Virus record (IMG/VR): IMGVR_UViG_2521172734_000002
DNA: 39,005 nucleotides
Reading direction: 5' to 3' (one strand)
From: a virus
Taxonomy: Duplodnaviria > Heunggongvirae > Uroviricota > Caudoviricetes
Made by a program: the position numbers and the translations under genes. Within the stretch, counting starts at the first letter, position 1, and each line of letters opens with the position of its first letter. The notes under the pieces are model-generated. The model had not been told where the DNA came from. It was given only the letters and a program-made list of their open reading frames with translations, and ran no database searches. This document shows positions 2,814 through 38,071 of the stretch, in pieces.

Positions 2814-2833
2814 TTTTAAATCCTTTTACTATA

Positions 2834-3430
2834 TTAATTTGAAACTATTGTACTTCTTATACAAGCAACTACTTCAATATCAGAAAATGCACATTCAAAG
2901 CTATTCTCTGTACTTGTAATTTTAATCATACCTTTTGGAAGCTTTGTGATTTTTCGAATGGAATAGGTTCCGTCGATGTTGATTAACCAGTGCCCATCAA
3001 GTACTTCAGAAAATTTTTGATCACAAATGTATGTGACGAGCCCATCCTGAATAACAATTGGTGATGAAAGATTTGCAGGAAGAAATGATGAATCGAAGAC
3101 ATATGAACCATCTTCAATCATTTTGCCTGCGGTAAGGCGAAACTTGGCAAGCTCTTCTGTAGCTGCTGTCAGCGAGCTTTGCTTAAGGCCTTGCCCGGTG
3201 GTTAACCATTTCAGTGAGGTTCCTGTTTCAAGAGCACATTGGATTATCCAGTCTGCAGGAAACGTATCCCGCAAATACCTGTTCGCCAGAGTGCTTTTTG
3301 ATACTTCCAAGTGATCAGCTAAAGCCTGTCGTGTCGTAAAGCCATAAGCTTCGACTAATCGCTCAATCGCAGCCTTACCACCTTTATTGGGATTTATTTT
3401 GATCTCATTTGGGTACTTTGATGTTGACAT
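2834..3430 (-). CDS. cI: Immunity repressor, phage 186 CI-like
   Basis: 198-aa ORF divergent from the apl/cII operon; N-terminal HTH-like segment (AIERLVEAYGFTTRQALADHLEVSKSTLANR); position between int and the excisionase-like gene. Confidence 0.75.
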   Translation of the reverse strand: MSTSKYPNEIKINPNKGGKAAIERLVEAYGFTTRQALADHLEVSKSTLANRYLRDTFPADWIIQCALETGTSLKWLTTGQGLKQSSLTAATEELAKFRLTAGKMIEDGSYVFDSSFLPANLSSPIVIQDGLVTYICDQKFSEVLDGHWLINIDGTYSIRKITKLPKGMIKITSTENSFECAFSDIEVVACIRSTIVSN

Positions 3431-3477
3431 ATCTCTTTTGCGATCCTAGTATCAATTTTGTCCCCATTTGGGTACTT
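3406..3477 (+). promoter_or_regulatory. Putative lysis-lysogeny switch: sigma70-like early promoter with flanking direct repeats
   Basis: -35 TTGACA (3424-3429), 17-nt spacer, -10 TAGTAT (3447-3452); two direct copies of CATTTGGGTACTT at 3406-3418 and 3465-3477 flank it; the -35 overlaps the cI start codon. Confidence 0.4.
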
Positions 3478-3525
3478 GTCACGATTACTACAGGCTCACC
3501 ACAAGCCAATAGGAGATGTTGCATC

Positions 3526-3747
3526 ATGACCCCTAACATTTCAATAACTCTGAATACGCCACATGTCACAATTGAGCGTTATAGCGAACTTACTGGTCTT
3601 TCTATCGACACCATCAACGATATGCTGGCTGATGGTCGCATCCCTCGCCATCGCCTTCGGAAAGACAAGAAAAGAGAAAAGGTAATGATCAACCTTGCTG
3701 CTCTTACCGTTGATGCACTTACTGATTGCAATGTTGTATTCAACTAG
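3526..3747 (+). CDS. apl: Apl/Cox-like excisionase / transcriptional regulator
   Basis: 73-aa ORF from ATG 3526 with AGGAGA RBS at 3511-3516; first gene of the rightward early operon, divergent from cI; small basic protein. Confidence 0.65.
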
Positions 3748-4869: not shown

Positions 4870-5103
4870 ATGCGTAATATTGAAACCCTCACGACTAAAA
4901 CCGGACCGGATGACGCAGGGCTTAATATTTTACTGACAGAGGCTCGTCTGGAAGAACGCCGGGCAAGGGCTGAAGCAATGGCAGCTCGCCTTGATAGCCT
5001 GGCGTGTCATATCTCATCCCGTCAGCTAAACCACGTGGAAGCGGCAGAACTGCTGCGTGTGACTGCTGAAGCAATCCAGAACGAAGCGCAGGAGATCCAC
5101 TAA
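4870..5103 (+). CDS. Early-region hypothetical protein
   Basis: 77-aa ORF from ATG 4870; AGGAG RBS at 4856-4860. Confidence 0.5.
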   Translation: MRNIETLTTKTGPDDAGLNILLTEARLEERRARAEAMAARLDSLACHISSRQLNHVEAAELLRVTAEAIQNEAQEIH

Positions 5104-5330
5104 TGGCTGATGCAATGGATCTCGTACAGCAGCGCGTTGAAGAAGAACGCCAGCGCCATATCCGTGCTGCCCGTGCCAAAACGCCGGGCGTGTCCCGCGT
5201 GCTTTGCGTTGAGTGTGAAGCGCCAATTCCGCCAGCACGCCGCCGTGCCATTCCGGGTGTGCAGCTTTGCATTACATGTCAGGAAATCGCAGAGCTGAAA
5301 GGCAAACATTACAACGGAGGTGCTGTATGA
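5103..5330 (+). CDS. TraR/DksA-family C4 zinc-finger protein
   Basis: 75-aa ORF with CxxC...CxxC (CVECEAPIP...CITCQE); start overlaps the upstream stop. Confidence 0.7.
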   Translation: MADAMDLVQQRVEEERQRHIRAARAKTPGVSRVLCVECEAPIPPARRRAIPGVQLCITCQEIAELKGKHYNGGAV

Positions 5331-6184
5331 GCACCATCTTGAAATGGGCGGGAAATAAAACCGCCGTAATGTCCGAACTGAAAAAACATCTTCCTGCTGG
5401 TCCGCGACTAGTTGAACCTTTCGCGGGTTCCTGTGCTGTGATGATGGAGACGGATTATCCCTGCTATCTGGTTGCGGATATTAATCCTGATTTAATCAAC
5501 CTCTATAAAAAGGTTGCCGCTGATTGTGAATCGTTTATATCTCGCGCCAAAGTTTTATTTGAGATCGCAAACAGGGAGGTGGCTTATTACAACATAAGGC
5601 AGGAGTTTAATTACTCAACTGAAATTACTGATTTCATGAAAGCGGTATATTTCCTGTATCTCAATCGTCACGGTTACCGTGGGTTATGTCGCTATAACAA
5701 GAGCGGGCATTTCAACATTCCCTACGGTAATTATAAAAATCCGTATTTCCCTGAAAAAGAAATTCGCGCTTTTGCAGAAAAAGCCCAGCGAGCAACGTTT
5801 ATCTGCGCCAGCTTTGATGAAACGCTGGCGATGTTGAAGGCGGGGGATGTGGTGTATTGCGATCCGCCTTATGACGGTACGTTTTCCGGCTATCACGCTG
5901 ACGGCTTTACTGAAGATGACCAGTATCACCTGGCATCCGTTCTTGAACATCGGTCATCAGAAGGACATCCGGTCATTGTTTCTAACAGTGACACATCCCT
6001 GATCCGTTCGCTGTATCGCAATTTTACTCACCACTATATCAAGGTAAAACGCAGCATCGGCGTAGCAGCTGGTGAGAGTAAATCAGCAACAGAAATCATT
6101 GCTGTTTCCGGGCCGCGCTGCTGGGTGGGATTTGATTATTCGCGTGGCGTGGATAGTTCTGCCGTGTACGGAGTACGTGCATGA
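5327..6184 (+). CDS. dam: DNA adenine methyltransferase (Dam-like, D12 class N6-MTase), orphan
   Basis: 285 aa from ATG 5327 (GGAGG RBS); N-terminal KWAGNK SAM-binding motif and catalytic DPPY (CDPPYDGTF); no adjacent restriction endonuclease gene. Confidence 0.85.
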
Positions 6185-8595
6185 GCCATGCCGATATGAG
6201 CAACTGCTGCGGCTTTAACGAGGCTGCCGCATCGTTCTCATGGAACAGCCCGAAAAAGGCCATTAACCCTTATCTGGACCCGGCGGAAGTTGCGCCGGTT
6301 TCTGCGCTTTCAAACCTGATCACTCTGTACGCTGCCGATAACGAGCAGGAACAACTGCGCCGCGAGGCACTGAGTGATCAGGTCTGGGAGCGTTATTTCT
6401 TTAATGAATCCCGTGATCCTGTCCAACGCGAAATGGAGCAGGATAAGCTCATTAGCCGGGCAAAGTTGGCGCATGAGCAGCAGCGTTTTAACCCGGACAT
6501 GGTCATTCTGGCAGACGTCAGCGCCCAGCCCTCCCATATCAGCAAGCCGCTGATGCAACGTATTGAATACTTCAGCAGCCTGGGCAGGCCAAAGGCTTAT
6601 TCCCGCTATTTACGTGAGACGATTAAGCCATGTCTGGAACGACTGGAGCATGTACGCGACAGCCAGCTATCTGCATCTTTTCGTTTTATGGCAAGCCATG
6701 TAGGGCTGGACGGCCTGCTGATTCTGCCTGAAATGAGTCAGGATCAGGTGAAACGCCTGTCTACCCTTGTCGCTGCGCATATGAGCATGTGCCTTGATGC
6801 AGCTTGTGGTGATTTGTATGCCACCGATGACGTTAAGCCAGAAGAAATCCGCAAGACATGGGAAAAGGTGGCAGCGGAAACCCTGCGTCTGGATGTCATC
6901 CCGCCTGCGTTTGAGCAACTCCGTCGGAAAAGAAACCGCCGTAAACCCGTGCCCTATGAACTCATTCCGGGTTCGCTGGCGCGTATGTTGTGCGCCGACT
7001 GGTGGTACCGGAAATTATGGAAAATGCGTTGCGAATGGCGGGAAGAGCAGTTGCGTGCTGTCTGCCTGGTCAGCAAAAAAGCATCTCCCTATGTCAGCTA
7101 TGAAGCCGTGATGCATAAACGTGAGCAGCGCCGCAAGTCACTGGAGTTTTTCCGTTCTCATGAACTGGTGAACGAAGAGGGCGACACGCTGGATATGGAA
7201 GACGTGGTAAACGCCAGCAGCAGCAACCCGGCGCACCGCCGCAATGAGATGATGGCCTGTGTTAAAGGTCTGGAGCTTATCGCGGAAATGCGCGGTGACT
7301 GCGCCGTTTTCTACACCATTACCTGTCCGTCACGTTTCCATTCCACGCTCAATAACGGCAGACCAAACCCAACCTGGACAAATGCGACGGTAAGACAAAG
7401 CAGCGATTATCTGGTCGGCATGTTTGCTGCATTTCGTAAGGCGATGCACAAAGCCGGGTTGCGCTGGTATGGCGTGCGGGTGGCTGAGCCGCATCATGAC
7501 GGTACAGTTCACTGGCACCTGTTGTGTTTCATGCGCAAAAAAGACCGCCGCGCCATTACTGCATTGTTGCGTAAGTTTGCCATCCGTGAAGACCGCGAGG
7601 AACTGGGTAATAACACTGGTCCACGCTTTAAATCTGAGCTGATAAACCCGCGCAAAGGAACGCCGACAAGCTACATCGCGAAATACATCAGTAAGAACAT
7701 TGACGGGCGTGGTCTGGCTGGCGAGATCAGCAAGGAAACGGGTAAATCCCTGCGTGATAACGCTGAATACGTTAATGCCTGGGCGTCTCTGCATCGTGTT
7801 CAGCAATTCCGCTTCTTTGGTATTCCGGGACGTCAGGCTTACCGTGAACTTCGCTTGCTGGCTGGTCAGGCGGCAAGGCAACAGGGTGACAAAAAAGCAG
7901 GTGCGCCGGTACTGGATAACCCGCGTCTTGATGCCATTCTGGCTGCTGCTGATGCTGGTTGTTTTGCCACCTACATCATGAAGCAGGGCGGCGTACTGGT
8001 TCCCCGCAAATATCACCTCATCAGAACCGCTTATGAAATCAACGAAGAGCCAACCGCCTATGGCGATCACGGTATTCGTATTTATGGCATCTGGTCACCC
8101 ATTGCAGAGGGCAAGATCTGCACTCATGCAGTGAAGTGGAAAATGGTTCGTAAGGCCGTTGACGTTCAGGAGGCGGCAGCCGACCAGGGCGCTTGCGCCC
8201 CTTGGACTCGTGGCAATAACTGTCCCCTTGCTGAAAATTTGAACCAACAAGGGAAAGACAAATCAGCTGATGGGGATACCAGAACGGACATTACCCGCAT
8301 GGATGACAAGGAGTTGCACGAATACCTGCACAGTATGAGCAAAAAAGAGCGCCGGGAACTGGCTGCAAGGTTACGCCTGGTGAAACCGAAACGGCGTAAA
8401 GACTACAAACAGCGAATTACAGACCATCAGCGACAGCAGCTCGTCTATGAACTGAAGTCCAGAGGATTTGATGGCAGCGAGAAAGAGGTCGATTTACTCC
8501 TTCGCGGCGGCAGTATTCCGTCAGGAGCAGGCCTGCGTATCTTCTATCGGAACCAGCGTTTGCAGGAAGATGATAAGTGGCGGAACCTGTATTAA
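6181..8595 (+). CDS. A: Replication initiation protein A (rolling-circle nickase, P2 gpA-like)
   Basis: 804-aa ORF; His-hydrophobic-His motif (TVHWHLLCF) and paired active-site tyrosines (SYIAKYISK); ATGA overlap with the dam stop. Confidence 0.9.
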
Positions 8596-8747: not shown

Positions 8748-8936
8748 ATGCAGGACTATTTTTTGGAGTCTTTGAAGCTCCAGCGCATTGATTTTTTTCT
8801 TAAGCTTGTAGCGGCTAGTGAGTGTAGTGATGAAGAGAAGGGGCTGGCTCTGCAGTGGGTTTCTGAATTGACTGATGAACTCATGGCAAAAATCAGAACC
8901 CACGAATACAACCGCTCAATGGATGTCATCAGCTGA
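8748..8936 (+). CDS. Small SOS-controlled protein; possible Tum-like antirepressor N-terminal module
   Basis: 62-aa ORF with strong AGGAGG RBS 5 nt upstream; directly downstream of the LexA box; directly upstream of the DinI-like gene. Confidence 0.45.
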   Translation: MQDYFLESLKLQRIDFFLKLVAASECSDEEKGLALQWVSELTDELMAKIRTHEYNRSMDVIS

Positions 8937-8946
8937 GGTGACCTTT

Positions 8947-9180
8947 ATGCGCATTGAAATAATGATCGATAAAGAGCAGAAGATTAGCCAGTCTACCCTG
9001 GACGCCCTTGAATCCGAGCTTTACCGCAATCTGCGCCCCCTGTATCCCAAAATGGTAATTCGCATCCGCAAAGGTAGCTCTAACGGTGTGGAACTGACCG
9101 GACTGCAACTGGACGAAGAAAGAAAACAAGTGATGAAGATTATGCAGAAGGTGTGGGAAGACGACAGCTGGCTGCATTAA
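8947..9180 (+). CDS. DinI-family protein
   Basis: 77-aa ORF starting MRIEIMIDKEQ... and ending ...WEDDSWLH, resembling E. coli DinI in length and termini. Confidence 0.7.
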   Translation: MRIEIMIDKEQKISQSTLDALESELYRNLRPLYPKMVIRIRKGSSNGVELTGLQLDEERKQVMKIMQKVWEDDSWLH

Positions 9181-9339
9181 GAAAAGTTGCTGGCGTCTGA
9201 ACTTGATTCTGGCGTCAGCAAGGTTGAACAACGAGTACAGTGAGGCGTTAGGTGTGGCGTTTATTTGATGAGTGAACGCCCGTTCTGCGACAGGTTCGGA
9301 GATTAAGGTTGAAACTACGGGCAAAATACCATCTTTTTC

Positions 9340-9765
9340 CTACTTAATTGAGTCCAGTAACAAGTTACAGTTACTCTCATTGTAGAGAGAACGAGCAATT
9401 AGTGTTACCTGCTTTCCATTCATTCCCGGCTTATCCCATAACACAGCTTCTTGCGACGCCACAAATTCAGCATAATCAATTATGCGTTGTTCGTGATCTG
9501 GTTCCTCATAGCCAAAGTATGAGAGCGCATCGTTGTAAGCGTGGTAAGCTGCTTTCTGTAATATCTTGATATCGGCTGTAGGTACTTGCTCCGTGTAGCT
9601 AGGATCTAATTGTGTGCTACTGCCATAGAATGCACATGAAAGGTAAGATATTGATTTCTGTTGAGCTTTAGTTCCTTTCTCATAGTTTTTAGCTGTTACC
9701 GCCTGAACTGGGACGCTAACAAAGCTTGCAACCAGAATTAAAATTAATACGTAAAAGCTTTTCAT
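9340..9765 (-). CDS. Secreted/periplasmic protein of unknown function (cargo)
   Basis: 141-aa ORF with a classic signal peptide (MKSFYVLILILVASFVSVPVQA|VT); AT-rich; opposite strand to surrounding phage genes. Confidence 0.6.
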   Translation of the reverse strand: MKSFYVLILILVASFVSVPVQAVTAKNYEKGTKAQQKSISYLSCAFYGSSTQLDPSYTEQVPTADIKILQKAAYHAYNDALSYFGYEEPDHEQRIIDYAEFVASQEAVLWDKPGMNGKQVTLIARSLYNESNCNLLLDSIK

Positions 9766-10038
9766 TTTGACCTCAGCCGAAACGTTAGAGAGACTATCGA
9801 AATTTGTAAAACCCGTGGCGATTCAGTTTGAGATCCTCCCCCTTACATGATTTTTAATCAAATATATGCTTTTGTAAGCATACCTGTTAACCGAATTATT
9901 TATTTTTAGAGATCTTCCGACATACTGATTATGCCCGCTGAGGAGTTCACCTTGCGTAAGGTCCGATTCGCTTTACTCGTCTGTGAATGTCTATGCTGCA
10001 TGAGATTGCATGATCGTTTGAGGATCGTTTTTGCTAAG

Positions 10039-10062
10039 GCCCGCCAGAACTGGCGGGCTTTT
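10039..10062 (+). terminator. Rho-independent terminator-like hairpin
   Basis: GCCCGCCAG-aa-CTGGCGGGC followed by TTTT. Confidence 0.5.
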
Positions 10063-10107
10063 GCGTAGATCATGCACCTGCATGAAAACCACTACATAAA
10101 GCGGGCA

Positions 10108-10126
10108 GGCGTGGCGGGGATACGAG
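10108..10126. other. Candidate cos (cohesive end) site
   Basis: GGCGTGGCGGGGA matches the first 13 nt of the 186/P2 cohesive-end sequence as I remember it (GGCGTGGCGGGGAAAGCAT); lies between the replication region and Q/P as expected. Confidence 0.35.
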
Positions 10127-10253
10127 CGCGCGCAGAGAGTTAGTTTGGCATTTGAACCTAAGTCATTAGTGATAACTTGGTGTCATTTTTTGGGTTGTAA
10201 ATGATGTAAGTATCCATTTAATATGGATATATCTACTCTTAAGGCGCAGAAAA

Positions 10254-10823
10254 ATGATGGGGCCAATCAAAATTTACTCTTGCGGTACATATCATCCTTG
10301 GCGATATCGAGGAGAGCGAAATCCTCGTTCCGGGGATAGACTTTCAAAGGCAATGATGGATTTGAAGGACGCTTCAAATTCCGGGTATGCAAAGGCTGTT
10401 AATATTTTTACCCAACTTTTAACTTCTAGCCTCCAAAGCTATGTGATTGGTAGGGTTGCTTTTACCGACGTGCCCTTTGAGATAACAATTGTTCCTTCTC
10501 ATGCTGAGGGAAAAGTATCTCAAGCTTTAATAAAAATAGCGCAAGATATTGCGAAAAAATTTCCTAATGCTGTATATAACCAATCATTACAGAGAAAAAC
10601 AACAGTAGTGAGTGCTCATAAGGGGGGCGGAGATCGTTCTGTCGAACATCATATGTCAACAATCGGAGTTACATCCAATGTGGCTGATAAGGTTATTCTC
10701 CTTATTGATGATGTTACTACAACTGGGGGGAGTATGACGGCGTGCTATTATCTGTTAAGATATGCAGGCGCAAAGACAATATTGCCACTGGCGTTACTAG
10801 AAACAGCTAATTATGAGGAGTGA
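10254..10823 (+). CDS. Phosphoribosyltransferase (PRTase)-domain protein, ShosT-like candidate toxin/effector
   Basis: 189-aa ORF with type-I PRTase PRPP-binding motif VILLIDDVTTTGGSM; stop overlaps the start of the DprA-like gene; AT-rich. Confidence 0.65.
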   Translation: MMGPIKIYSCGTYHPWRYRGERNPRSGDRLSKAMMDLKDASNSGYAKAVNIFTQLLTSSLQSYVIGRVAFTDVPFEITIVPSHAEGKVSQALIKIAQDIAKKFPNAVYNQSLQRKTTVVSAHKGGGDRSVEHHMSTIGVTSNVADKVILLIDDVTTTGGSMTACYYLLRYAGAKTILPLALLETANYEE

Positions 10824-11790
10824 AATAATGCACCCTTCCCAATTCAAAATATTGTTAGGTCTATCGGTACAGGTTGATAGACTTGCATCAGAACAAGGGT
10901 TGCTTAAATTATTTAACGATATTCCATTCCATATTATTTCCGATGAATATGAATTGGTTGAGTGTGTTAATTCAGCCGGGATTTTAAAATCCACCTTTTC
11001 TATAGCGTCATTGCATAATGCTGAAGACTATTTGAGCAAGCATTTGTCATTGGGGATTGTTCCAATTCCTTTTGGAGATGCTAAATACCCTATTTGTTTA
11101 GCAATTACGCCAAATCCCCCAGCAATGTTATATTTGAAGGGGGACGTAAATATTCTTAGTGAGATGCCAGGAGTTGCAATTGTTGGTTCTCGTGAAGTTT
11201 CTATGGCAGGGGAAGAAATTACGAAGAGAATTACCACGAAAATCTGTGAAAGAGGTGTGGTGATTGTAAGCGGCCTAGCTATTGGTACTGATACAAATGC
11301 ACACAAGGCAACTCTTAAGGCAGGTGCTAAAACAATTGCTGTATTAGCTCATGGTTTAGAGAGCGCTAAGCCTAAACAAAATGCTAGATTAGCAAATGAA
11401 ATTTTATCTAACGGTGGGGCTTGGATTTCTGAGTATCCTGTAGGGAGGCCTGCATTCAAGCAGTCATTTGTGCAACGCAACAGAATCCAGGTAGGTTTAT
11501 CAGCAGTTTCGATACTAATCGAAGCAGCAAAAAATAGTGGGACAATGACGCAGGCGGATTTTGCTATTAAAGCGGCAAGACCTATTTTTGCTGTTGTACC
11601 GCATAAGGCTGATAATCCACTGGGACTTAATTGCGAAGGAACTCAACAACTTGTTGATAATGAATTGGCTAATCCCTTGCGCACTAGTCAAGACTATGAT
11701 TCACTGATGAATGTAATATCTGAGTCAATAAGCAAAATTAAGATAAATTCTGATATTTATAGATCTAATATGAGTCACTTTCTGATTTAG
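10813..11790 (+). CDS. DprA/Smf-like (SLOG/Rossmann) protein, ShosA-like candidate partner
   Basis: DprA-type motif VGSREVS...VIVSGLAIGTDTNAHKATLKAGAKTIAVLAHGLE; likely true start ATG 10828 after AGGAG (10817-10821). Confidence 0.7.
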   Translation: MRSEIMHPSQFKILLGLSVQVDRLASEQGLLKLFNDIPFHIISDEYELVECVNSAGILKSTFSIASLHNAEDYLSKHLSLGIVPIPFGDAKYPICLAITPNPPAMLYLKGDVNILSEMPGVAIVGSREVSMAGEEITKRITTKICERGVVIVSGLAIGTDTNAHKATLKAGAKTIAVLAHGLESAKPKQNARLANEILSNGGAWISEYPVGRPAFKQSFVQRNRIQVGLSAVSILIEAAKNSGTMTQADFAIKAARPIFAVVPHKADNPLGLNCEGTQQLVDNELANPLRTSQDYDSLMNVISESISKIKINSDIYRSNMSHFLI

Positions 11791-19354: not shown

Positions 19355-19748
19355 AGCAGTGCCTTATGTCCGTAATAACCCGGACAAACTGCATCTGTTT
19401 GTAGATAATGGTTCGCTGGTTGCCACCGGGGCCAGCTCCATGTCATGGGAGTATCGTTACACCCTGAACGTGGTGATAGAGGATTTCAGCGGCGACCAGA
19501 ATCTGCTGATGGCCCCGGTTTTGCTGTGGCTGCGTGATAACCAACCTGATGCCATCAATAATCCGGCATTACGGGAAAAGCTATTCACCTTTGAGGTGGA
19601 TATTCTGCGCAACGATGTCTGTGATATCAGCCTTAACCTGCAGCTGACAGAGCGTGTGGTGGTCAACACTGACGGCAGTGTGTCGAGCGTTGAAGCTATA
19701 GCGGAACCCGATGAACCTGAAGAAATGTGGACGGTGAAACGTGGCTGA
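19317..19748 (+). CDS. R: Tail completion protein R (P2 gpR-like)
   Basis: Probable GTG start at 19317 (MNKPQSLRHALNKA...); collinear with gpR (..FVDNGS..RYTLNVV..LRDNQPD..). Confidence 0.8.
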   Translation: MNKPQSLRHALNKAVPYVRNNPDKLHLFVDNGSLVATGASSMSWEYRYTLNVVIEDFSGDQNLLMAPVLLWLRDNQPDAINNPALREKLFTFEVDILRNDVCDISLNLQLTERVVVNTDGSVSSVEAIAEPDEPEEMWTVKRG

Positions 19749-20190
19749 ATTGCAGAAGGTGGACGACTGGCTGAGTGCCTTGCTGGCGAATCTGGAGCCT
19801 GCCGCAAGAAGCCGCATGATGCGCCAGCTGGCGCAGGAACTGCGCCGGACACAGCAGCAGAATATCAGGATGCAGCGCAATCCAGATGGCAGCAGTTATG
19901 AGCCGCGACGGGCAACAGCACGCAGTAAAAAAGGCCGCATCAAACGCCAGATGTTTGCAAAGCTGCGCACCACAAAATACCTGAAAACTGCCGCCAGCGC
20001 CGATTCTGCCAGCGTGCAGTTTGCTGGCAAGGTGCAGCGTATTGCCCGTGTTCATCACTACGGCCTGCGAGAACGTATTCAACGAATTAATATGTCTATT
20101 AAGTATCCATGTAGAAAGTTGTTGGGAGTTAATGAACAATTAATCATTGACTTAGAAAAATTATTAGTAGAGTATTTCGCTCAAAATTAG
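19741..20190 (+). CDS. S: Tail completion protein S (P2 gpS-like) with an AT-rich, apparently replaced C-terminal end
   Basis: MAELQKVDDWLSALLANLEPAARSRMMRQLAQELRRTQQQNIRMQRNPDGS... is gpS-like; the last ~35 codons (from about 20085) are sharply AT-rich. Confidence 0.8.
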   Translation: MAELQKVDDWLSALLANLEPAARSRMMRQLAQELRRTQQQNIRMQRNPDGSSYEPRRATARSKKGRIKRQMFAKLRTTKYLKTAASADSASVQFAGKVQRIARVHHYGLRERIQRINMSIKYPCRKLLGVNEQLIIDLEKLLVEYFAQN

Positions 20191-20207
20191 TACATCTGTG
20201 TGACAAT

Positions 20208-20591
20208 ATGCAACAGTTTATTCAGATTTTACAAACTATTTCCACATGGCCGTTTGCTTTCATCTTTGGTCTATGTATTTTATATCGTCCTATAAATATG
20301 TTGTTTAGTAGATTTATTGAAAGTAATACGGCAAAAGCTAAATTAGGATTTGTGGAGCTAGAGATTGGAGAGCTAGCTAAAAAAGGAAGAGAGGCTGTTG
20401 ATAATTTTAATGAGTTAACCATTGTTATGGCTAAGACTCGGTTGTTGGAGTTAGAGGTTACTAAAGAGAACTTTTCTGCAGCGTTTTCATCTAATCAGCA
20501 AGTTAAATTAAATGCATTGATGTTGGAGCTAGAAAAAAAGATTCATTATCTTGAGGAAGTAAGAGATGAAGGTTTATCCATTAAAAAATAA
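20208..20591 (+). CDS. Small membrane-anchored coiled-coil protein (cargo cassette gene 1)
   Basis: 127-aa ORF; N-terminal hydrophobic segment (ISTWPFAFIFGLCILY) then charged heptad-like region; AT-rich; no clear SD, so the start is uncertain. Confidence 0.45.
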   Translation: MQQFIQILQTISTWPFAFIFGLCILYRPINMLFSRFIESNTAKAKLGFVELEIGELAKKGREAVDNFNELTIVMAKTRLLELEVTKENFSAAFSSNQQVKLNALMLELEKKIHYLEEVRDEGLSIKK

Positions 20592-21780
20592 AATGGTTAT
20601 ATCTTTTTCATCCTCAGTCCATATGGCTATAATTGTGTATATCCAAGATGGATTGGTCTTATCAGATATTATCCATGAAAATAACGTGCAATCAGGTGAG
20701 ATTGATTTTGGTATACCACTTTTTGATGCAAGTGAAACAAGTGAGAAAATTGTTGATCACCTCCTGACGTTGATAGGGGATACAAAAAATTTACATATTG
20801 ATTTATTAAGGAGATACTATGATGCGCAATTAGAGCTTTATAACTCAGTTATCTCTAGTAAATTCTTAAATGAACTTTTTATCGATTGTCCTAATTTAGC
20901 GTGGGGAATTGTTTTAGATAATTATTACGGTGTTAATTTTCATACTGTTGAGTATTTGGCAAGAATAAAAAGAAAACGATTAATTTCTATTTTGGCTGGT
21001 ACTGCTGCTGAGGAAAAGATAGTAAATATACTTAAGAAGACTTCATTGCTGAATGGAAGAAAGGATGAGTTTCTCTGGCTATCACGTTGTTTAAGTAGTG
21101 ATGCTATTATTGAATCGTATAAGCATAAAAAGAATATATCTATACAGGAGCTTTATTTAGCATATAGTTATCCAATTTTTTGTGGTGCTAATTTATTGGA
21201 AAGTTTGTGCGAAGAAAAAAAAGATACTCTTCAAGATTATAAATACGGAATGATATCTCTTGAAAAGTTGGTACGGGATAGTATACGAATAGGCGAAAAC
21301 ATAGGTATAAAATCTGCCAAGACAATGGTTATGAATTGTAATAGTAGGGAAGATGTGAAAAACCTTCATGATAAGTGGTCATTACGGTTGAGAAATTCGA
21401 CGACCTATCTTGAAAAGGATATTTTCTTGGATGAGCCAAGCATACAGGTTATTGACGGAATAGAGTATATCAACTCAATAAACAAGTTGATTAAAGAGGG
21501 TAAAGAAATGAAGCACTGCTTGGCTTCATATAAAGAAAAAGTTATCAATGGTGAAAGTTATATATACAAGGTTTTAACTCGGTGGGGAGAGCGAGTAACA
21601 GTCGAGTTGGCATTGTCAAATGGTATCTATTTGCTAAAGCAAGCAAAAGGTATTTGTAATTCTCAACCTAGTGATCTCGCTCTTAATTATATTCATACAT
21701 GGTTGGAAAACGAAAACAAATACCTGAAGGAGGCTTTAGAGTTGTATGCTGGCGACTTTAAAAGAGCTATGAGTGCTTAG
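20566..21780 (+). CDS. 404-aa protein of unknown function with conserved-looking EGKEMKHCLASY motif (cargo cassette gene 2; possibly PcfJ-like)
   Basis: Long ORF with GAGGAAG RBS; overlaps gene 1 by 26 nt; AT-rich; inserted between S and V where P2 has no gene. Confidence 0.6.
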   Translation: MKVYPLKNKMVISFSSSVHMAIIVYIQDGLVLSDIIHENNVQSGEIDFGIPLFDASETSEKIVDHLLTLIGDTKNLHIDLLRRYYDAQLELYNSVISSKFLNELFIDCPNLAWGIVLDNYYGVNFHTVEYLARIKRKRLISILAGTAAEEKIVNILKKTSLLNGRKDEFLWLSRCLSSDAIIESYKHKKNISIQELYLAYSYPIFCGANLLESLCEEKKDTLQDYKYGMISLEKLVRDSIRIGENIGIKSAKTMVMNCNSREDVKNLHDKWSLRLRNSTTYLEKDIFLDEPSIQVIDGIEYINSINKLIKEGKEMKHCLASYKEKVINGESYIYKVLTRWGERVTVELALSNGIYLLKQAKGICNSQPSDLALNYIHTWLENENKYLKEALELYAGDFKRAMSA

Positions 21781-21790
21781 TTGTAAGATT

Positions 21791-21808
21791 TGTATCATAG
21801 TCCCTACA
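21791..21808 (+). promoter_or_regulatory. Late promoter activator site (TGT-N12-ACA, Ogr/Delta-type) for the V operon
   Basis: TGTatcatagtccctACA centred about 55 bp upstream of the V start. Confidence 0.45.
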
Positions 21809-21854
21809 ATTCAATATTATTTATATCTTTGATGCGTTCTTTCATTATCAAATT

Positions 21855-22433
21855 ATGAACGCACAATTAACCGAAATCATGCGCCTTATCACCAATCTGA
21901 TCCGCACTGGTGTAGTCACCGAAGTGGACCGGGAAAACTGGCTTTGCCGGGTGAAAACGGGCAACCTTGAAACCAACTGGATTAACTGGTTGACGCTGCG
22001 TGCCGGGAATGCCCGCACATGGTGGCGACCATCGGAAGGTGAGCAGGTGGTGCTGCTGAGTCTGGGTGGCAATCTGGAAACCGCCTTTGCGTTGCCCGCT
22101 GTCTATTCGAATCAGTTCGCGCCACCATCGACGTCGGCGAACGCTTGCGTGACAGAACATCCTGACGGTGGCTGGTTTGAATACGACCCCGCCACCGGGA
22201 GCTGGTATGTCAGGGGCATCAAATCAATGGTCATTGAGGCCGCTGACAACATCACCATGAAAACCAGTGAGTTTGTACTGGAGGCTGACCGCACGCGTAT
22301 TAACAGCGAAGTGGTGATCAATGGTGGCGTTACCCAGGGCGGCGGAGCGATGAGTTCTAACGGGATCGTGGTTGATGCGCATCAGCATACAGGCGTCCTG
22401 AAAGGCGGCGACACAACCGGAGGTCCGGTATGA
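21855..22433 (+). CDS. V: Baseplate assembly/spike protein V (P2 gpV-like)
   Basis: 192-aa ORF; ...NWINWLTLRAGNARTWWRPSEGEQVVLL..GGNLETAFALPAVYS collinear with gpV. Confidence 0.9.
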   Translation: MNAQLTEIMRLITNLIRTGVVTEVDRENWLCRVKTGNLETNWINWLTLRAGNARTWWRPSEGEQVVLLSLGGNLETAFALPAVYSNQFAPPSTSANACVTEHPDGGWFEYDPATGSWYVRGIKSMVIEAADNITMKTSEFVLEADRTRINSEVVINGGVTQGGGAMSSNGIVVDAHQHTGVLKGGDTTGGPV

Positions 22434-25985: not shown

Positions 25986-26576
25986 TAAATACGTGGATGA
26001 TGAAGTCCTGGAATTAAAGCTGTATGTGGATGACCAGATGAGAAACCACATTGCCGCACAAGATCCTCATTCCCAGTATGCGCAGAAACATAATCCGACA
26101 TTTACCGGAGAACCAAAAGCGCCGACGCCTGCAGCAGGAAATAACACCACGCGGATTGCGACCACTGAGTTTGTTCAGGCCGCTATTACTGCTCTGATTA
26201 ACGGTGCGCCAGCCACGCTGGACACACTGAAAGAAATTGCCGCAGCCATTAACAATGATCCGAAATTCAGTACCACCATTAACAATGCGCTGGCACTGAA
26301 AGCGCCGCTGTCGAGTCCGGCACTCACCGGAACGCCAACCGCACCTACTGCGGCACAGTCGGTCAACAATACACAAATTGCCACCACGGCATTTGTGAAA
26401 TCGGCGATTGCGGCAATGGTGGGTTCTGCACCTGCGGCACTGGATACACTGAACGAACTGGCGGCGGCGCTGGGGAATGACCCGAACTTTGCCACGACAA
26501 TGCTTAATGCACTGGCAGGTAAACAACCGCTGGACAATACGCTGACTAATTTGAGTGGAAAGGATGTAACTGGTCT

Positions 26577-26602
26577 TCTCACATACCTTGGTTTGGGAGA
26601 AG
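26577..26602. repeat. Putative invertase crossover site (left) inside H
   Basis: Contains TTGGTTTGGGAGAAG (26588-26602), a perfect inverted copy of 28213-28227; resembles the AAACC-AA-GGTTT core of gix/hix sites. Confidence 0.45.
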
Positions 26603-26917
26603 CCAGATATGTCATTCAGCGAGGAGCTAATGCCAATGGTGCATGGATACGCTGGTCAGATGGTGCAATAGAAGTATTTGGAACCGGTGGATCTAATGAT
26701 AATGGACTGGCTAAAGTTGTTTACCCAATTGCACTGCCTAAACTTTCACGTTTTATCAGTATCGCGGAAAGAATAAGAACGGATTACGAGAGCACACCTA
26801 ATAATGTTCACGTTTCAATGATCGTGGATGATCAAGTAACAAATACCGGCTTTTATGCCCGCTGCCAGATGTACGACGGCAGACCATCATCAAATGCTTT
26901 TTCCTGGAGGGTTTATT

Positions 26918-27115
26918 GTGCGCCTGTTTAATCCAGTTACTTTGACTGAAGTAATCCCCGGTCTTCATGACGTGACCGGGGCTATTGAATTACCGGAGGA
27001 CAACTGGTTTTTTACTATGACAGAAATTCCTCAGGGCATGGAGCTAACAATTAATGAGAAAGGCGAACCAATACTAATTGAGGTTAATCAGTCTCAGGGA
27101 ATACAGGCCAAATAA
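26918..27115 (+). CDS. Possible short tail-fibre assembly/chaperone ORF downstream of H
   Basis: GTG-initiated ORF of about 66 aa right after the fibre variable end, convergent with the alternative assembly gene; identity uncertain. Confidence 0.3.
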   Translation: MRLFNPVTLTEVIPGLHDVTGAIELPEDNWFFTMTEIPQGMELTINEKGEPILIEVNQSQGIQAK

Positions 27116-27692
27116 TATCAGGCGCGGTGCTGGTATCTGTTGCCGTCACTGCGTCAATGTAATTCAGCACCGTGTTAAGTCGGTTGGTTTCTGCCTGCGT
27201 CAGACTCCGTCCGGCCTGTAATTTCAGTTGAATCAGATTGATGGAAGCCATTGCAGTATCCATCAGCGACTGGCGCTGTGCTTCTGCTGCATCTACTGCG
27301 GCGCTATGCTGTGCCTCGGTATCCGTCACCCATTTCTCACCATTCCATTTATCGTATGGCGTTAACGGGGCGATAGTGGTTGTATTATCAGGGTAATCCC
27401 CCGGAGCTGTGATTTCTTTTGATTCTCCCGTTTCGGTGTTATAGACAACTTCACCGCGATGGTCTGGCACATATTCCCATGAGTTAAAATCTGCCGAACG
27501 GCAGATTGCATAACCAGCCTTATGTGTGCCAGGAGCATCTAAACAGGAATATGCGGGGATACCGACACCCACAGCAAGATATTCAATTGATGCAGAAATA
27601 TACTCCCGTGTCTCACTGTCATAGTTATAAACGGTAATCTCTCCTGCCTTTGTGGCAATAAATTTATTATTTAAGATGGCGTTATACATCAT
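27084..27692 (-). CDS. Tail-fibre assembly protein (alternative cassette, Tfa/U'-like)
   Basis: 202-aa ORF; inverted relative to H; overlaps the alternative fibre end; N-terminus of the lambda Tfa type (..ITVYNYDSETREYI..). Confidence 0.65.
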   Translation of the reverse strand: MMYNAILNNKFIATKAGEITVYNYDSETREYISASIEYLAVGVGIPAYSCLDAPGTHKAGYAICRSADFNSWEYVPDHRGEVVYNTETGESKEITAPGDYPDNTTTIAPLTPYDKWNGEKWVTDTEAQHSAAVDAAEAQRQSLMDTAMASINLIQLKLQAGRSLTQAETNRLNTVLNYIDAVTATDTSTAPDIIWPVFPETD

Positions 27693-28267
27693 GCAGCCCT
27701 CACAATGTAATTAAATGAAATATTACGTGGGCGTGTCTCTGCTGCACCGACAATACTGGTACTCAACCCCGTTGCCGTTCGTTTGTTATTTTTATTTCCT
27801 TCAATCAAACAGTTGTAATCATCATTACCAATTAACGAATTGGTGGCATCAATACTGTCCGGGGACAAGGCATTAGTTGTGGAACTTAAAGTCAGCATCT
27901 CGTCTGAACTTGGAAGATTTTTTAATGGTGTTTCATTGCGTGAAATACCCGCGTAAAAAAAGGACTCATGCCTGTGAGCTTCAAAAGAGTCATCCTGAAG
28001 ACTTAGCAAGGCTCGCCCCGCATCCACTCCACGTCCATCATCCCAGCCACGAATAAATTCACCGCGTAAATCAGGCAATTTATTGGTCGGGTAAGCCTTT
28101 GCCAGTTCCGGGTATTCTTCAGCAGAAAAAGCCGCACCATTGCATTTCAGCCAGCCTGTTGGCGGAGTGGCTGAAGGCCACGGAACAGGCACCCCAACCG
28201 GTAATGCAGAGCCTTCTCCCAAACCAACGTTTAAGAAAATGCAGCGATTACGACTAACTGGCATCAT
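27689..28267 (-). CDS. Alternative tail-fibre C-terminal (receptor-binding) segment Sv'
   Basis: In-frame ORF on the opposite strand spanning the right crossover site; would fuse to the H constant part after inversion; the functional segment probably starts at the crossover site, not at the ORF-track Met. Confidence 0.55.
   Translation of the reverse strand: MMPVSRNRCIFLNVGLGEGSALPVGVPVPWPSATPPTGWLKCNGAAFSAEEYPELAKAYPTNKLPDLRGEFIRGWDDGRGVDAGRALLSLQDDSFEAHRHESFFYAGISRNETPLKNLPSSDEMLTLSSTTNALSPDSIDATNSLIGNDDYNCLIEGNKNNKRTATGLSTSIVGAAETRPRNISFNYIVRAA
28211..28236. repeat. Putative invertase crossover site (right)
   Basis: TTCTCCCAAACC-AA-CGTTTAAGAAAA, an imperfect dyad of the hix/gix type; its core CTTCTCCCAAACCAA (28213-28227) is the inverted copy of 26588-26602; lies just upstream of the invertase gene. 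Confidence 0.45.
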
Positions 28268-28294
28268 CCCCGATTTTTATTCAAGGAGATGATC

Positions 28295-28861
28295 ATGCTT
28301 ATTGGTTATGTACGCGTGTCAACAAATGACCAGAACACCGATTTGCAACGTAATGCACTGAATTGCGCGGGATGTGAGCGGATTTTTGAGGACAAAATCA
28401 GTGGCACTAAGTCCGACAGACCGGGGCTTAAAAAACTGCTCAGGACACTATCGGCAGGAGACACTCTGGTTGTCTGGAAGCTGGACAGGTTGGGGCGCAG
28501 TATGCGGCATCTTGTTACGCTGATAGAAGAGTTGCGCCAGCGTGGCGTGAATTTCCGAAGCCTGACTGACAGTATTGATACCAGTACCCCAATGGGCCGT
28601 TTCTTTTTTCATGTTATGGGTGCCCTGGCTGAAATGGAACGCGAACTGATAGTTGAACGTACCAGGGCAGGGCTGGCTGCAGCTCGTGCCAAAGGCAGAG
28701 TAGGTGGACGCCGTCCTAAGTTGACCACCGAACAGTGGGCACAGATTGGGCGTTTACTTGAGGCCGGAGAATCAAGACAGCGTATTGCACTGATTTTTGA
28801 TGTAGGCGTTTCTACTATTTATAGAAAATTTCCGGCAAATAAGAGCAATGAATCTCCCTGA
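28295..28861 (+). CDS. Serine DNA invertase (Gin/Cin/Pin/Hin family)
   Basis: MLIGYVRVSTNDQNTDLQRNAL...LVVWKLDRLGRSM...GRFFFHVMGALAEMERELI, near-collinear with Gin; AAGGAG RBS 6 nt before ATG 28295. Confidence 0.9.
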   Translation: MLIGYVRVSTNDQNTDLQRNALNCAGCERIFEDKISGTKSDRPGLKKLLRTLSAGDTLVVWKLDRLGRSMRHLVTLIEELRQRGVNFRSLTDSIDTSTPMGRFFFHVMGALAEMERELIVERTRAGLAAARAKGRVGGRRPKLTTEQWAQIGRLLEAGESRQRIALIFDVGVSTIYRKFPANKSNESP

Positions 28862-28909
28862 ATCAGCATTATTTTTATTATCCCTGCAAGCAGACAAATA
28901 CCGTCATTT

Positions 28910-36385: not shown

Positions 36386-38071
36386 TTATCCTAATCCTGG
36401 CCATACCATGACGATGATTGTCCCTGCCAGCGTCAGCAGGACGTTGGCGATTGCGTAGGTGCCCGCATAGCCCAGCGCAGGGATGTTACTGCGAGCTGTA
36501 TCACTGATGATCTCCATTGCCGGCGCGCAGGTGCGTGCGCCCATCATTGCGCCGAACAACAGTGCGCGGTTCATTCGCAATACATAAGCACCGAACAAGA
36601 AACAGATAACCACGGGCACAAGACTGACAATTAATCCGGCAATCAACATCTGACCGCCAATCGCGCCCAGGCCGTTATTAATACCGCTACCGGCGCTCAG
36701 ACCAACGCCTGCCATAAACACCATCAAGCCGAACTCTTTCACCATGCTTAATGCACCTTGCGGAATGTAACCGAAGGTCGGGTGGTTAGCACGCATAAAG
36801 CCCAGCATAATTCCGGCGAATAACAACCCGGCAGCGTTCCCCATGCCGAAACTGAATGTGCTGAACTGGAAGGTGATCATCCCGATCATCAGCCCAATAA
36901 CAAAGAAGGCGCAAAATGCCAGCAGGTCAGTGACCTGGCTGTGAATCGAGATAAAGCCGATGCGATCGGCGATGGTTTTTACGCGACGGGCATCACCGCT
37001 GACTTGTAAAACGTCACCTTTGTTAAGCACGACGTTGTCATCTATCGGCATCTCAATCTGGCTACGAATGACGCGGTTAAGGAAGCAACCGTGATCGGTC
37101 AACTTCAGTTGTGCGAGACGTTTACCTACAGCGTTATGGTTTTTAACGACCACTTCTTCAGTGACGATACGCATGTCGAGAAGGTCACGATCGAAAACTT
37201 CTTTACCGTTACGGAAGCTGGGATCGAGTCGGGCATGGGCGTCGGGATAGCCTACCAACGCTATTTCATCGCCCATTTGTAGCACGGCATCACCGTCTGG
37301 ATTTGCAAGAATCCCGTTACGTCGAATACGTTCAATGTAGCAGCCGGTTTGTCGATAAATACCCAGTTCACGCAGATTTTTGCCGTCGGTCCAGGCCACG
37401 AGCTCCGGGCCGACGCGATAGGCGCGGATCACCGGTAAATAAACCTTACGGTTGGCATCAGTGTCCAGGCCACGTTCGCGGGCGATTTGCTGGGCGCTGG
37501 TCTGTAAGTCCTGATGCTGCAATTTCGGCAAGTAACGCGCACCAACAATCAAACTCACCAGACCGATTAAATAGGTTAAGGCATACCCGAGGCTCAGATT
37601 ATCCAGTGCCAGTGAGAGCTGCCTGCTTTCCATGCCGGAATGACGCAGTGTATCGCCAGCACCGACCAGAACCGGTGTCGACGTCATAGAGCCTGCTAAC
37701 ATACCGGCCGTCAGGCCAATATCCCAGCCAAACAGCTTACCTAACCCTAAGGCGATCACCAGCGCACTGCCAACCATCACCAGTGCTAACATTAGGTAAT
37801 TTTTCCCATCGCGAAAAAAAATGGAAAAAAAGTTCGGTCCGGCTTCGACCCCGACGCAGAAAATAAACAGCATAAAGCCAAGATTAAGCGCATCGGTGTT
37901 AATGCTGAAATGTTGTTGGCCTAATAACAGCGATACGACTAAAACGCCAATGGAATTACCCAGTTGGATCGAACCAAGTCGTAACTTTCCGAGACATAGC
38001 CCAAGCGCGAGGACCACAAATAATAACAGAATGTAATTCCCATTTAACAATTCGGCGACGTTTATATTCAC
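36386..38071 (-). CDS. ybjL: Putative AAE-family transporter YbjL (host gene)
   Basis: 561-aa multi-pass membrane protein whose sequence I recognise as E. coli YbjL; chromosomal GC and codon usage. Confidence 0.85.

Follow-up and report, generated by a model that had tools for sequence, protein, structure and literature searches.

The AT-rich block between the tail genes S and V

The window, as we call the whole 39,005-nucleotide stretch of DNA analysed here, belongs to a P2-like prophage of E. coli (IMGVR_UViG_2521172734_000002) and contains, in the interval between the tail genes S and V, an AT-rich block that extends from about position 20065 to 21854 (Table 1). Composition calculated along the sequence gives a GC content of 0.30-0.39 in the region 20001-22000, against 0.55-0.60 in the flanks. 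The contrast is also seen at the level of codons, with a GC3 of 0.28 for gene 1 and 0.30 for gene 2, compared with 0.65 for the 5' part of S and 0.63 for V. The block holds two plus-strand open reading frames that overlap by 26 nt: gene 2 starts inside gene 1, behind a Shine-Dalgarno sequence, GAGGAA, at position 20553. The two-gene AT-rich block described in an earlier note on this DNA is thus borne out by composition and by coding content.

Table 1 Features of the S-V interval and its edges (positions in the window).
Feature	Coordinates	Strand	Basis
Tail completion gene S, intact, with recombinant 3' end	19741..20190	+	Pfam Phage_tail_S, 2.7e-37
AT-rich alternative 3' end of S, left edge of the apparently imported block	20065..20190	+	GC content, DNA alignment
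Putative cassette promoter within S codons: TTGACT (20147-20152), 17-nt spacer, GAGTAT (20170-20175)	20147..20175	+	
Gene 1, predicted 127-aa single-pass membrane protein	20208..20591	+	ORF, hydrophobicity
Gene 2, predicted 404-aa cytoplasmic PcfJ-family protein	20566..21780	+	Pfam PcfJ
C-terminal PcfJ core of gene 2, residues ~299-404, with invariant E311, C318, R343, T345 and N365	21460..21777	+	
TGT-N12-ACA late-activator site of the V promoter, tgtatcatagtccctaca	21791..21808	+	Read from sequence
Baseplate spike gene V; right edge of the block at its ATG	21855..22433	+	Pfam Phage_base_V, Apex

Both edges of the block could be located by comparison with phage 500465-1, in which the site is empty. 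On the left, the DNA alignment places the breakpoint at about 20065, within S: the S protein is identical to its counterpart in the empty-site phage to about residue 112 and then continues with an alternative ending, and the GC content changes from 0.58 in the 5' part of the gene to 0.29 at its 3' end. This ending keeps Y122, R125, L127 and G129 as well as the normal length of the protein, and it resembles the S ending of Atlantibacter (LIIDLE..LLEYF). The exchange of the last S codons, which the earlier note had proposed, concerns about 37 codons that are AT-rich yet still S-like. On the right, identity between the window and 500465-1 resumes at the ATG of V, and upstream of this codon the two are diverged. 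The TGT-N12-ACA element of the V late promoter was correctly recognised as retained downstream of the cassette; its centre lies about 55 bp before the V ATG, at the position of the annotated pV activator site of P2, and the element is kept in all aligned S-V junctions.

In 8 of 11 loci, from prophage and chromosomal contexts alike, a sigma-70-like motif, TTGAC(A/T)-17-(G/A)A(T/G)NAT, precedes the start of gene 1 by 57-63 nt. A consensus promoter and terminator scan of the block gave nothing above shuffled sequences and missed this conserved motif, and no Rfam family was detected in the block. Because the cassette has the same orientation as the late operons, and no terminator was found in the 17 nt that separate gene 1 from S, it may also, or exclusively, be transcribed late.

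The two encoded proteins

The product of gene 1 contains one N-terminal hydrophobic helix (residues 7-25, KD19 1.76), followed by four K/R against one D/E, and its C-terminal domain of about 90 residues probably faces the cytoplasm. Seventeen orthologues share 46-87% identity, with W14, P15, R35, K43, A44, K45, G47, F48, E50, E52, G54, R78, L80, E81, L82 and T85 invariant, while searches of Pfam, PADLOC, PHROG, NCBIfam and PDB returned no match. Of the membrane-anchored coiled coil that had been proposed for this protein, the membrane helix stands and the coiled coil finds no support: in a crude test, 158 of 1000 shuffled sequences reached the best heptad contrast (0.625), and the alternation in the conserved segments VELEI and LELEV resembles that of beta-strands.

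Gene 2 encodes an N-terminal beta domain, a helical middle part and the C-terminal core (AF2 model, pLDDT 79.6). Residues 238-368 match the Pfam family PcfJ (PF14284) with an E-value of 1.2e-11 and 45 bits, above the curated gathering threshold of 25, and RefSeq labels the protein 'PcfJ domain-containing protein', so that its tentative association with PcfJ in the earlier note is confirmed. The family takes its name from an ORF of the Enterococcus plasmid pCF10, and to our knowledge it has no known function. Gene 2 and the PF14284 proteins have in common the core motif EG[KR][DE]MxHC..Y ... RxTxE ... QxxGxxN, which is also met, with its cysteine, in distant phage PcfJ proteins. Relatives of gene 2 are 27-77% identical, and the five core residues listed in Table 1 do not vary in any of 19 close and 61 distant relatives of full length. 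A catalytic H-C dyad had been suggested, and as a strict pair it was rejected: C318 is invariant, and H317 is only about 90% conserved, being replaced by N in the Halomonas homologue. Among the homologues of both families no broken copies were seen, and their sequences indicate that gene 1 and gene 2 are under purifying selection.

The C-terminal core of gene 2 shows a weak, partial and low-scoring GNAT-like topology, and no GNAT family was detected in the Pfam scan at E <= 1. Besides the TacT toxins, the superfamily of GNAT-fold acyltransferases counts the aminoacyl-tRNA transferases Fem and ATE1 among its members. The core of gene 2 has the look of an enzymatic or ligand-binding site arranged around the invariant cysteine. 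Sequence-profile searches of the PDB with the gene 1 and gene 2 families gave no match, and the only hit of gene 2 in PADLOC-DB v2.0.0, to ShosA (E 0.019 over 36 residues), is noise. PHROGs and NCBIfam were not informative for gene 2, the PHROG matches being families of unknown function, and the Foldseek matches in BFVD were without exception PcfJ-like phage proteins that are themselves uncharacterised. No further homologues came from a word-indexed profile search with the 19-member gene 2 alignment, and a scan of a genome collection with the close alignment yielded only seven loci. The subfamily of about 400 residues that is paired with gene 1 is a restricted gammaproteobacterial branch, made of 19 clusters plus the Pantoea and Halomonas members. 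Other phage and plasmid proteins of PF14284 differ from gene 2 by their N-terminal regions and by having no gene 1 homologue.

Distribution of the pair and of other cargo at the S-V site

In P2 itself (NC_001895) the nonessential Orf30 is annotated at 9439-10224, between S (8915-9367) and V (10308), and the earlier statement that P2 has no gene at this position does not hold. Nor is the site an undescribed hotspot: the S-V/orf30 locus is one of the three moron regions of P2-like phages (PMC3091744, PMC6823313), and a 2026 preprint reports P2 defence hotspots within late and tail genes. The block analysed here and the P2 orf30 locus share the insertion point, from the S stop codon to the Ogr-type pV activator site, and a content that is nonessential, variable and compositionally foreign. 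They differ in that Orf30 is a single minus-strand ORF of 261 aa, unrelated to gene 1 or gene 2 and with no Pfam or PADLOC match, whereas here two plus-strand genes are present and the 3' end of S and the pV region have been exchanged as well.

In a spread sample of about 58 sister E. coli prophages, the S-V junction is empty in about 22 and otherwise occupied by diverse cargo, which establishes it as a variable cargo site; the empty junction measures 68 bp in many relatives, and more than eight kinds of cargo are met in others. The cargo includes Septu (PtuA 1.6e-138, PtuB 5e-100), PARIS (AriA 5.7e-40, AriB 1.1e-23) and PDC-S49 (2.7e-135), as well as TIR, FRG and DUF6216 genes. Recognised cargo lies mostly on the opposite strand; Septu, PARIS and PDC-S49 are all on the minus strand, unlike the PcfJ pair, which is on the plus strand directly behind S. 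The two other variable sites of the prophage under study harbour PD-Lambda-1 and Shosta.

The pair itself was found in 6 of 5426 E. coli genomes, while the S and V flanks are present in approximately 930-1070. Far from occupying S-V in most P2-like phages, it is thus found in about 6 of some 1070 E. coli prophages, and a tblastn search with gene 2 of 50,697 deposited phage genomes gave no match at E <= 1e-5. As the pair is rare among relatives, it is no conserved structural gene set; acquired, foreign in composition and rare, it agrees with the view of a moron at an inter-operon junction. The layout R-S-[pair]-V-W recurs in Kosakonia, Citrobacter, Atlantibacter and Raoultella and in nine viral contigs, and islands of chromosomes and plasmids that lack surrounding phage genes have the pair as well. 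Outside prophages it adjoins AbiEi/AbiEii in Pantoea, lies beside PDC-M01A/B and an integrase fragment in Pantoea A4, and beside PDC-S06 and a transposase in Halomonas. In every locus where both genes could be examined the small gene precedes the PcfJ gene, overlapping or abutting it. Judged from these arrangements, gene 1 and gene 2 are a conserved mobile unit.

A candidate defence or exclusion pair

Neither gene 1 nor gene 2 matches any system model of PADLOC v2. Known defence genes are nevertheless found both at S-V in sister prophages (Septu, PARIS, PDC-S49) and next to the pair outside prophages (AbiE, PDC-M01, PDC-S06), and a role in defence or exclusion is consistent with this genomic company, although neighbourhood by itself is a weak guide to function. 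We favour, with a probability of roughly one half, the reading that the pair is a previously undescribed prophage defence or exclusion system. The block is a horizontally acquired accessory cassette with a putative promoter of its own, swapped into the orf30 site by recombination within S and at the start of V. Gene 1 would provide a single-pass inner-membrane protein and gene 2 a translationally coupled cytoplasmic partner, the PcfJ protein sensing or carrying out the enzymatic step, and the membrane protein tethering it or serving as membrane effector. The arrangement, conservation, pairing and mobility of the genes, their promoter motif and their genomic company are observed; we infer that the two proteins are expressed in the lysogen from their own promoter, interact physically and act jointly, with this division of labour, to confer a defence phenotype. 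A bolder version, in which an unrecognised two-component anti-phage system would bring new effector chemistry through a cysteine-dependent enzyme with a half-GNAT-like core that recurs in thousands of proteins of mobile elements, is tentative, and we think it rather unlikely.

The PcfJ superfamily, of about 3000 clusters, is much wider than the branch paired with gene 1, and its genomic settings indicate that as a whole it is not defence-specific, which gives weight to rival readings. The pair could serve the phage, in counter-defence or in DNA handling or establishment, through expression alongside the late genes or soon after entry, as is presumably the case for the PcfJ proteins of virulent phages and plasmids. 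Such a role would suit the superfamily being common in virulent phages, the core occurring in Herelleviridae, which are strictly virulent, and in further large phages, the position of a PcfJ gene in Bacillus phage Skywalker, where genes for gyrase and for ribonucleotide reductase flank it, the presence of PcfJ proteins on conjugative plasmids and a Marinomonas relative that adjoins a gene for a tubulin/FtsZ-like GTPase, and it would suit the co-orientation of the cassette with the O operon and the lack of a terminator after S. However, the distant phage PcfJ genes have no gene 1 homologue nearby, and the subfamily that is paired with gene 1 occurs in islands without surrounding phage genes and has its own conserved sigma-70-type promoter motif. 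Moreover, the pair is missing from more than 99% of closely related prophages and is therefore not needed by the phage; we regard this reading as possible, though clearly less probable than defence. The flanking ORFs of the Marinomonas gene were compared with gene 1 and with the downstream ORF of Pantoea, and are related to neither. A distant Vibrio relative lies among two-component signalling genes, with no defence context. Searches of the literature on PcfJ or PF14284 in connection with phages or defence gave no functional information and turned up no paper that connects the family with defence.

A selfish stabilisation module of the toxin-antitoxin kind, or another lysogenic-conversion function acting on host physiology or the envelope and with no direct anti-phage role, seems less probable again: no toxin-antitoxin family is matched in Pfam, NCBIfam or PADLOC, sizes of 127 and 404 aa, together with the membrane anchor, are unusual for type II pairs, and the resemblance of gene 2 to GNAT proteins is partial and low-scoring. 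As for conserved accessory genes of tail morphogenesis or lysis, the position between S and V, downstream of the lysis genes and on the same strand, would suggest them. The distribution of the pair effectively refutes this, given the many relatives whose junction is empty, the non-phage chromosomal and plasmid loci, the negative search of phage genomes and the foreign composition, and we consider it highly improbable.

The defence or exclusion reading has parallels in known systems. Hotspot cassettes of P2-like prophages, such as old/tin at gpA-gpQ (Rousset 2022) or Septu, PARIS and PDC-S49 at S-V, are likewise short, AT-rich, rapidly exchanged and placed between conserved core genes. The PcfJ pair differs from them in having no homology to catalogued systems (PADLOC-DB v2.0.0). 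In layout only, it also recalls RexA/RexB of lambda, in which a prophage likewise encodes a membrane protein together with a larger protein of the cytoplasm. RexB crosses the membrane several times, while gene 1 has one helix, and no relationship in sequence or fold to the Rex proteins was found.

In practice, the S-V (orf30) site is a third slot for defence cargo beside int-CI and gpA-gpQ, and the present prophage distributes PD-Lambda-1, Shosta and the PcfJ pair over the three sites. The cassette is short and well delimited (1.7 kb), with its own putative promoter and five invariant core residues, and is directly clonable. If the pair protects against phages, it would bring a new gene family into the catalogue of defence systems and give a first function to PcfJ (PF14284), whose clusters are spread over virulent phages, plasmids and prophages. 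Should it rely on a new cysteine-dependent chemistry, this would for the first time open the PcfJ superfamily, with its members in phages, plasmids and DGR targets, to functional study.

A two-gene block between S and V

The window is a P2-like (186/Wadgaonvirus-type) prophage whose late genes are ordered left to right. A composition scan of the window revealed that GC content falls from 0.55-0.60 to 0.30-0.39 at about 20000-22000, and the third-position GC of the two ORFs located there is 0.28 and 0.30, versus 0.65 in the 5' part of S and 0.63 in V. These ORFs overlap by 26 nt, with the gene 2 Shine-Dalgarno sequence (GAGGAA) sitting within gene 1, and Pfam identified R, S and V as the flanking genes. 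Alignment with 500465-1, the closest phage with an empty site (S-V spacer of 68 bp), placed the left breakpoint at ~20065, within S; the right breakpoint is the V ATG, at 21855. S is full length, and its substitute last ~37 residues retain the conserved positions of the S family. The earlier note was accurate in its sequence-level description of this AT-rich block, from composition, ORFs and flanks to the S ending and the V promoter element.

Furthermore, a TTGAC(A/T)-17-(G/A)A(T/G)NAT sequence, found 57-63 nt 5' of the gene 1 start at 8 of 11 loci, prophage and chromosomal alike, may be a sigma-70 promoter borne by the cassette. As this putative promoter is embedded in S codons, the AT-rich S ending would move along with the cassette.

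Features of the window
Feature	Position	Strand	Detail
Integrase	1-1053
PD-Lambda-1 match	1137-2813	-	558-aa DUF4041 + T5orf172 protein; PADLOC E 4.7e-120; between integrase and CI repressor
CI repressor	2834-3430
DinI-like gene	8875-9180		near Shosta
141-aa ORF	9340-9765	-	near Shosta
Shosta, ShosT-like PRTase	10254-10823	+	E 2.7e-18; classical gpA-gpQ hotspot
Shosta, ShosA/DprA-like	10813-11790	+	E 1.4e-69; classical gpA-gpQ hotspot
Putative promoter	20147-20152; 20170-20175		TTGACT; GAGTAT; within S codons for I-D-L
Gene 1	20208-20591	+	127 aa
Gene 2	20566-21780	+	404 aa
V promoter element	21791-21808		TGT-N12-ACA; ~55 bp before V, same as P2
Tail-fibre-assembly ORF	27084-27692	-
Collar-domain ORF	27689-28267	-
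190-aa ORF	28289-28861	+	adjoins collar-domain ORF
Asp-Al_Ex/TrkA_C permease	36386-38071	-	Pfam 7e-84

The cargo site and the spread of the pair

The earlier note held that P2 has no gene at this position and knew of no described defence hotspot there. In P2 this junction is in fact occupied by Orf30, a nonessential ORF, and the literature counts orf30 among three moron regions of P2-like phages, the others being TO and Z (PMC3091744, PMC6823313). Rousset 2022 confined its analysis to the gpA-gpQ hotspot, and a 2026 preprint adds defence hotspots of P2 that lie "downstream of GpL" and inside the tail genes; PcfJ is absent from both studies and their supplements. In a spread sample of ~58 prophages, S-V was empty in ~22 records and held hypothetical protein(s) in ~15, DUF6216 in 5 (BL21(DE3) included), an AAA ATPase with or without HNH or DUF4435 in 5, a TIR domain in 3, an FRG domain in 3, a P-loop NTPase in 2, and DUF6602 and the PcfJ pair in 1 each. 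PADLOC scored some S-V occupants of sister prophages as Septu, PARIS or the candidate system PDC-S49. A DUF6216 family gene occupies S-V in the P2-like prophage of two laboratory B strains, E. coli BL21(DE3) and T7Express (H53/H55).

The two other variable sites of the window hold PD-Lambda-1 (int-CI) and Shosta (gpA-gpQ). The tail-fibre region at 26500-28900 has lower GC and looks like an invertible segment. The permease is presumably a host gene, which would place the right prophage boundary near 35.9-36.3 kb.

The backbone occurs in ~930-1070 of 5426 complete E. coli genomes, and the cassette in just 5-6 of them, with identity of at least 99.7%. For gene 2 there are 19 close clusters, every one of 400-404 aa (48-100% identity, Enterobacterales throughout), while the 27 clusters of gene 1 extend to Pantoea and Halomonas. 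The small gene lies immediately 5' of the PcfJ gene at every locus where both could be examined, with an overlap of 26-29 nt at most loci, 4 nt in Pantoea, and a 2-nt gap in Halomonas. The order R-S-pair-V-W is found in Kosakonia, Citrobacter koseri, Atlantibacter, Raoultella and nine IMG/VR contigs. Outside prophages, the pair adjoins a CI-like repressor and core genes in Pectobacterium, AbiEi/AbiEii or, in a second context, PDC-M01A/B and an integrase fragment in Pantoea, and a transposase and PDC-S06, 3' of guaBA, in Halomonas. The large protein from Halomonas is homologous to gene 2 over its full length. At the Halomonas cupida locus (L011, 6001-7493) conservation of the membrane protein (51% identity to its counterpart in the window) far exceeds that of the large partner (27%), an unusual pattern for an accessory adaptor.

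A membrane protein and a PcfJ partner

Gene 1 had been described as a membrane-anchored coiled-coil protein; a single N-terminal membrane helix is supported, but the coiled coil found no support in a shuffle-controlled heptad test. Its C-terminal side is positively charged and therefore probably cytoplasmic. Conservation of the protein is strong, the segments K43-A44-K45.G47-F48.E50.E52.G54 and R78.L80-E81-L82..T85 being invariant, and searches of Pfam, PADLOC, PHROG, NCBIfam, PDB and clusters detected no relatives beyond its own family.

Gene 2, tentatively associated with PcfJ in the earlier note, is indeed a Pfam PcfJ member. Its AF2 model (pLDDT 79.6) shows a beta domain at the N-terminus, then a helical middle part, and an alpha/beta core at the C-terminus; modelled alone, this core reaches pLDDT 87.4. 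An exhaustive profile search at E <= 1e-3 matched 3031 clusters, of which many are ~380-410 aa long with matches spanning nearly the full length. Across 61 such relatives (19-29% identity), E311, C318, R343, T345 and N365 are invariant and H317, Y322, E347 and M315 at least 90% conserved; all map to the core, where together they are read as a putative active or ligand-binding site.

Members of the superfamily occur commonly among virulent Herelleviridae and large phages, and also on conjugative plasmids. In Bacillus phage vB_BanS_Skywalker (L051, 2999-4474), a 491-aa PcfJ-like gene between DNA gyrase A/B and ribonucleotide reductase genes is part of a DNA-metabolism module, and a 229-kb IMG/VR contig of a large phage (L033) encodes neighbouring PcfJ-core paralogues of 554 aa (2044-3708) and 463 aa (4891-6282). 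On a Marinomonas algicola plasmid (L050, 6878-9459), a 540-aa full-length relative contains a second, degenerate core that lacks the cysteine; its gene shares 4 nt with the tubulin/FtsZ-family GTPase gene (Pfam 3.9e-32) that follows it, in a trio directly after a type I R-M system. A 393-aa Vibrio sp. relative (L056, 6063-7786; 23% identity) follows an unrelated 104-aa hydrophobic ORF and neighbours two-component signalling genes, not defence genes.

Function of the pair

The best-supported reading, to which we give a probability of about 0.5, is that the pair is a prophage-encoded defence or exclusion system. It draws on what kind of site S-V is, on how rare and mobile the cassette is, on the putative promoter that the cassette carries, on the tight coupling of gene 2 to a membrane partner, and on the defence-island surroundings of the pair at four independent places outside prophages. 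What speaks against this reading is that the PcfJ superfamily is not specific to defence, as virulent phages, conjugative plasmids, the Marinomonas GTPase and the Vibrio signalling neighbours illustrate; moreover, the cassette lies on the late strand, 17 nt after S, and no terminator separates the two. That the pair instead benefits the phage, through counter-defence or DNA handling, is a weaker possibility, and addiction or another lysogenic-conversion role appears less probable still. A structural or lysis role is excluded by the distribution of the pair, and we consider it very improbable.

The S-V site and the annotation of gene 2 as PcfJ were already known. The novelty lies in recognising a conserved module of small membrane protein and PcfJ protein as a candidate defence system, for which we found no PADLOC model and no describing paper. 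As hotspot-borne prophage cargo, the pair will hold little surprise for specialists; it also offers a clean, testable way into the large uncharacterised PcfJ domain family.
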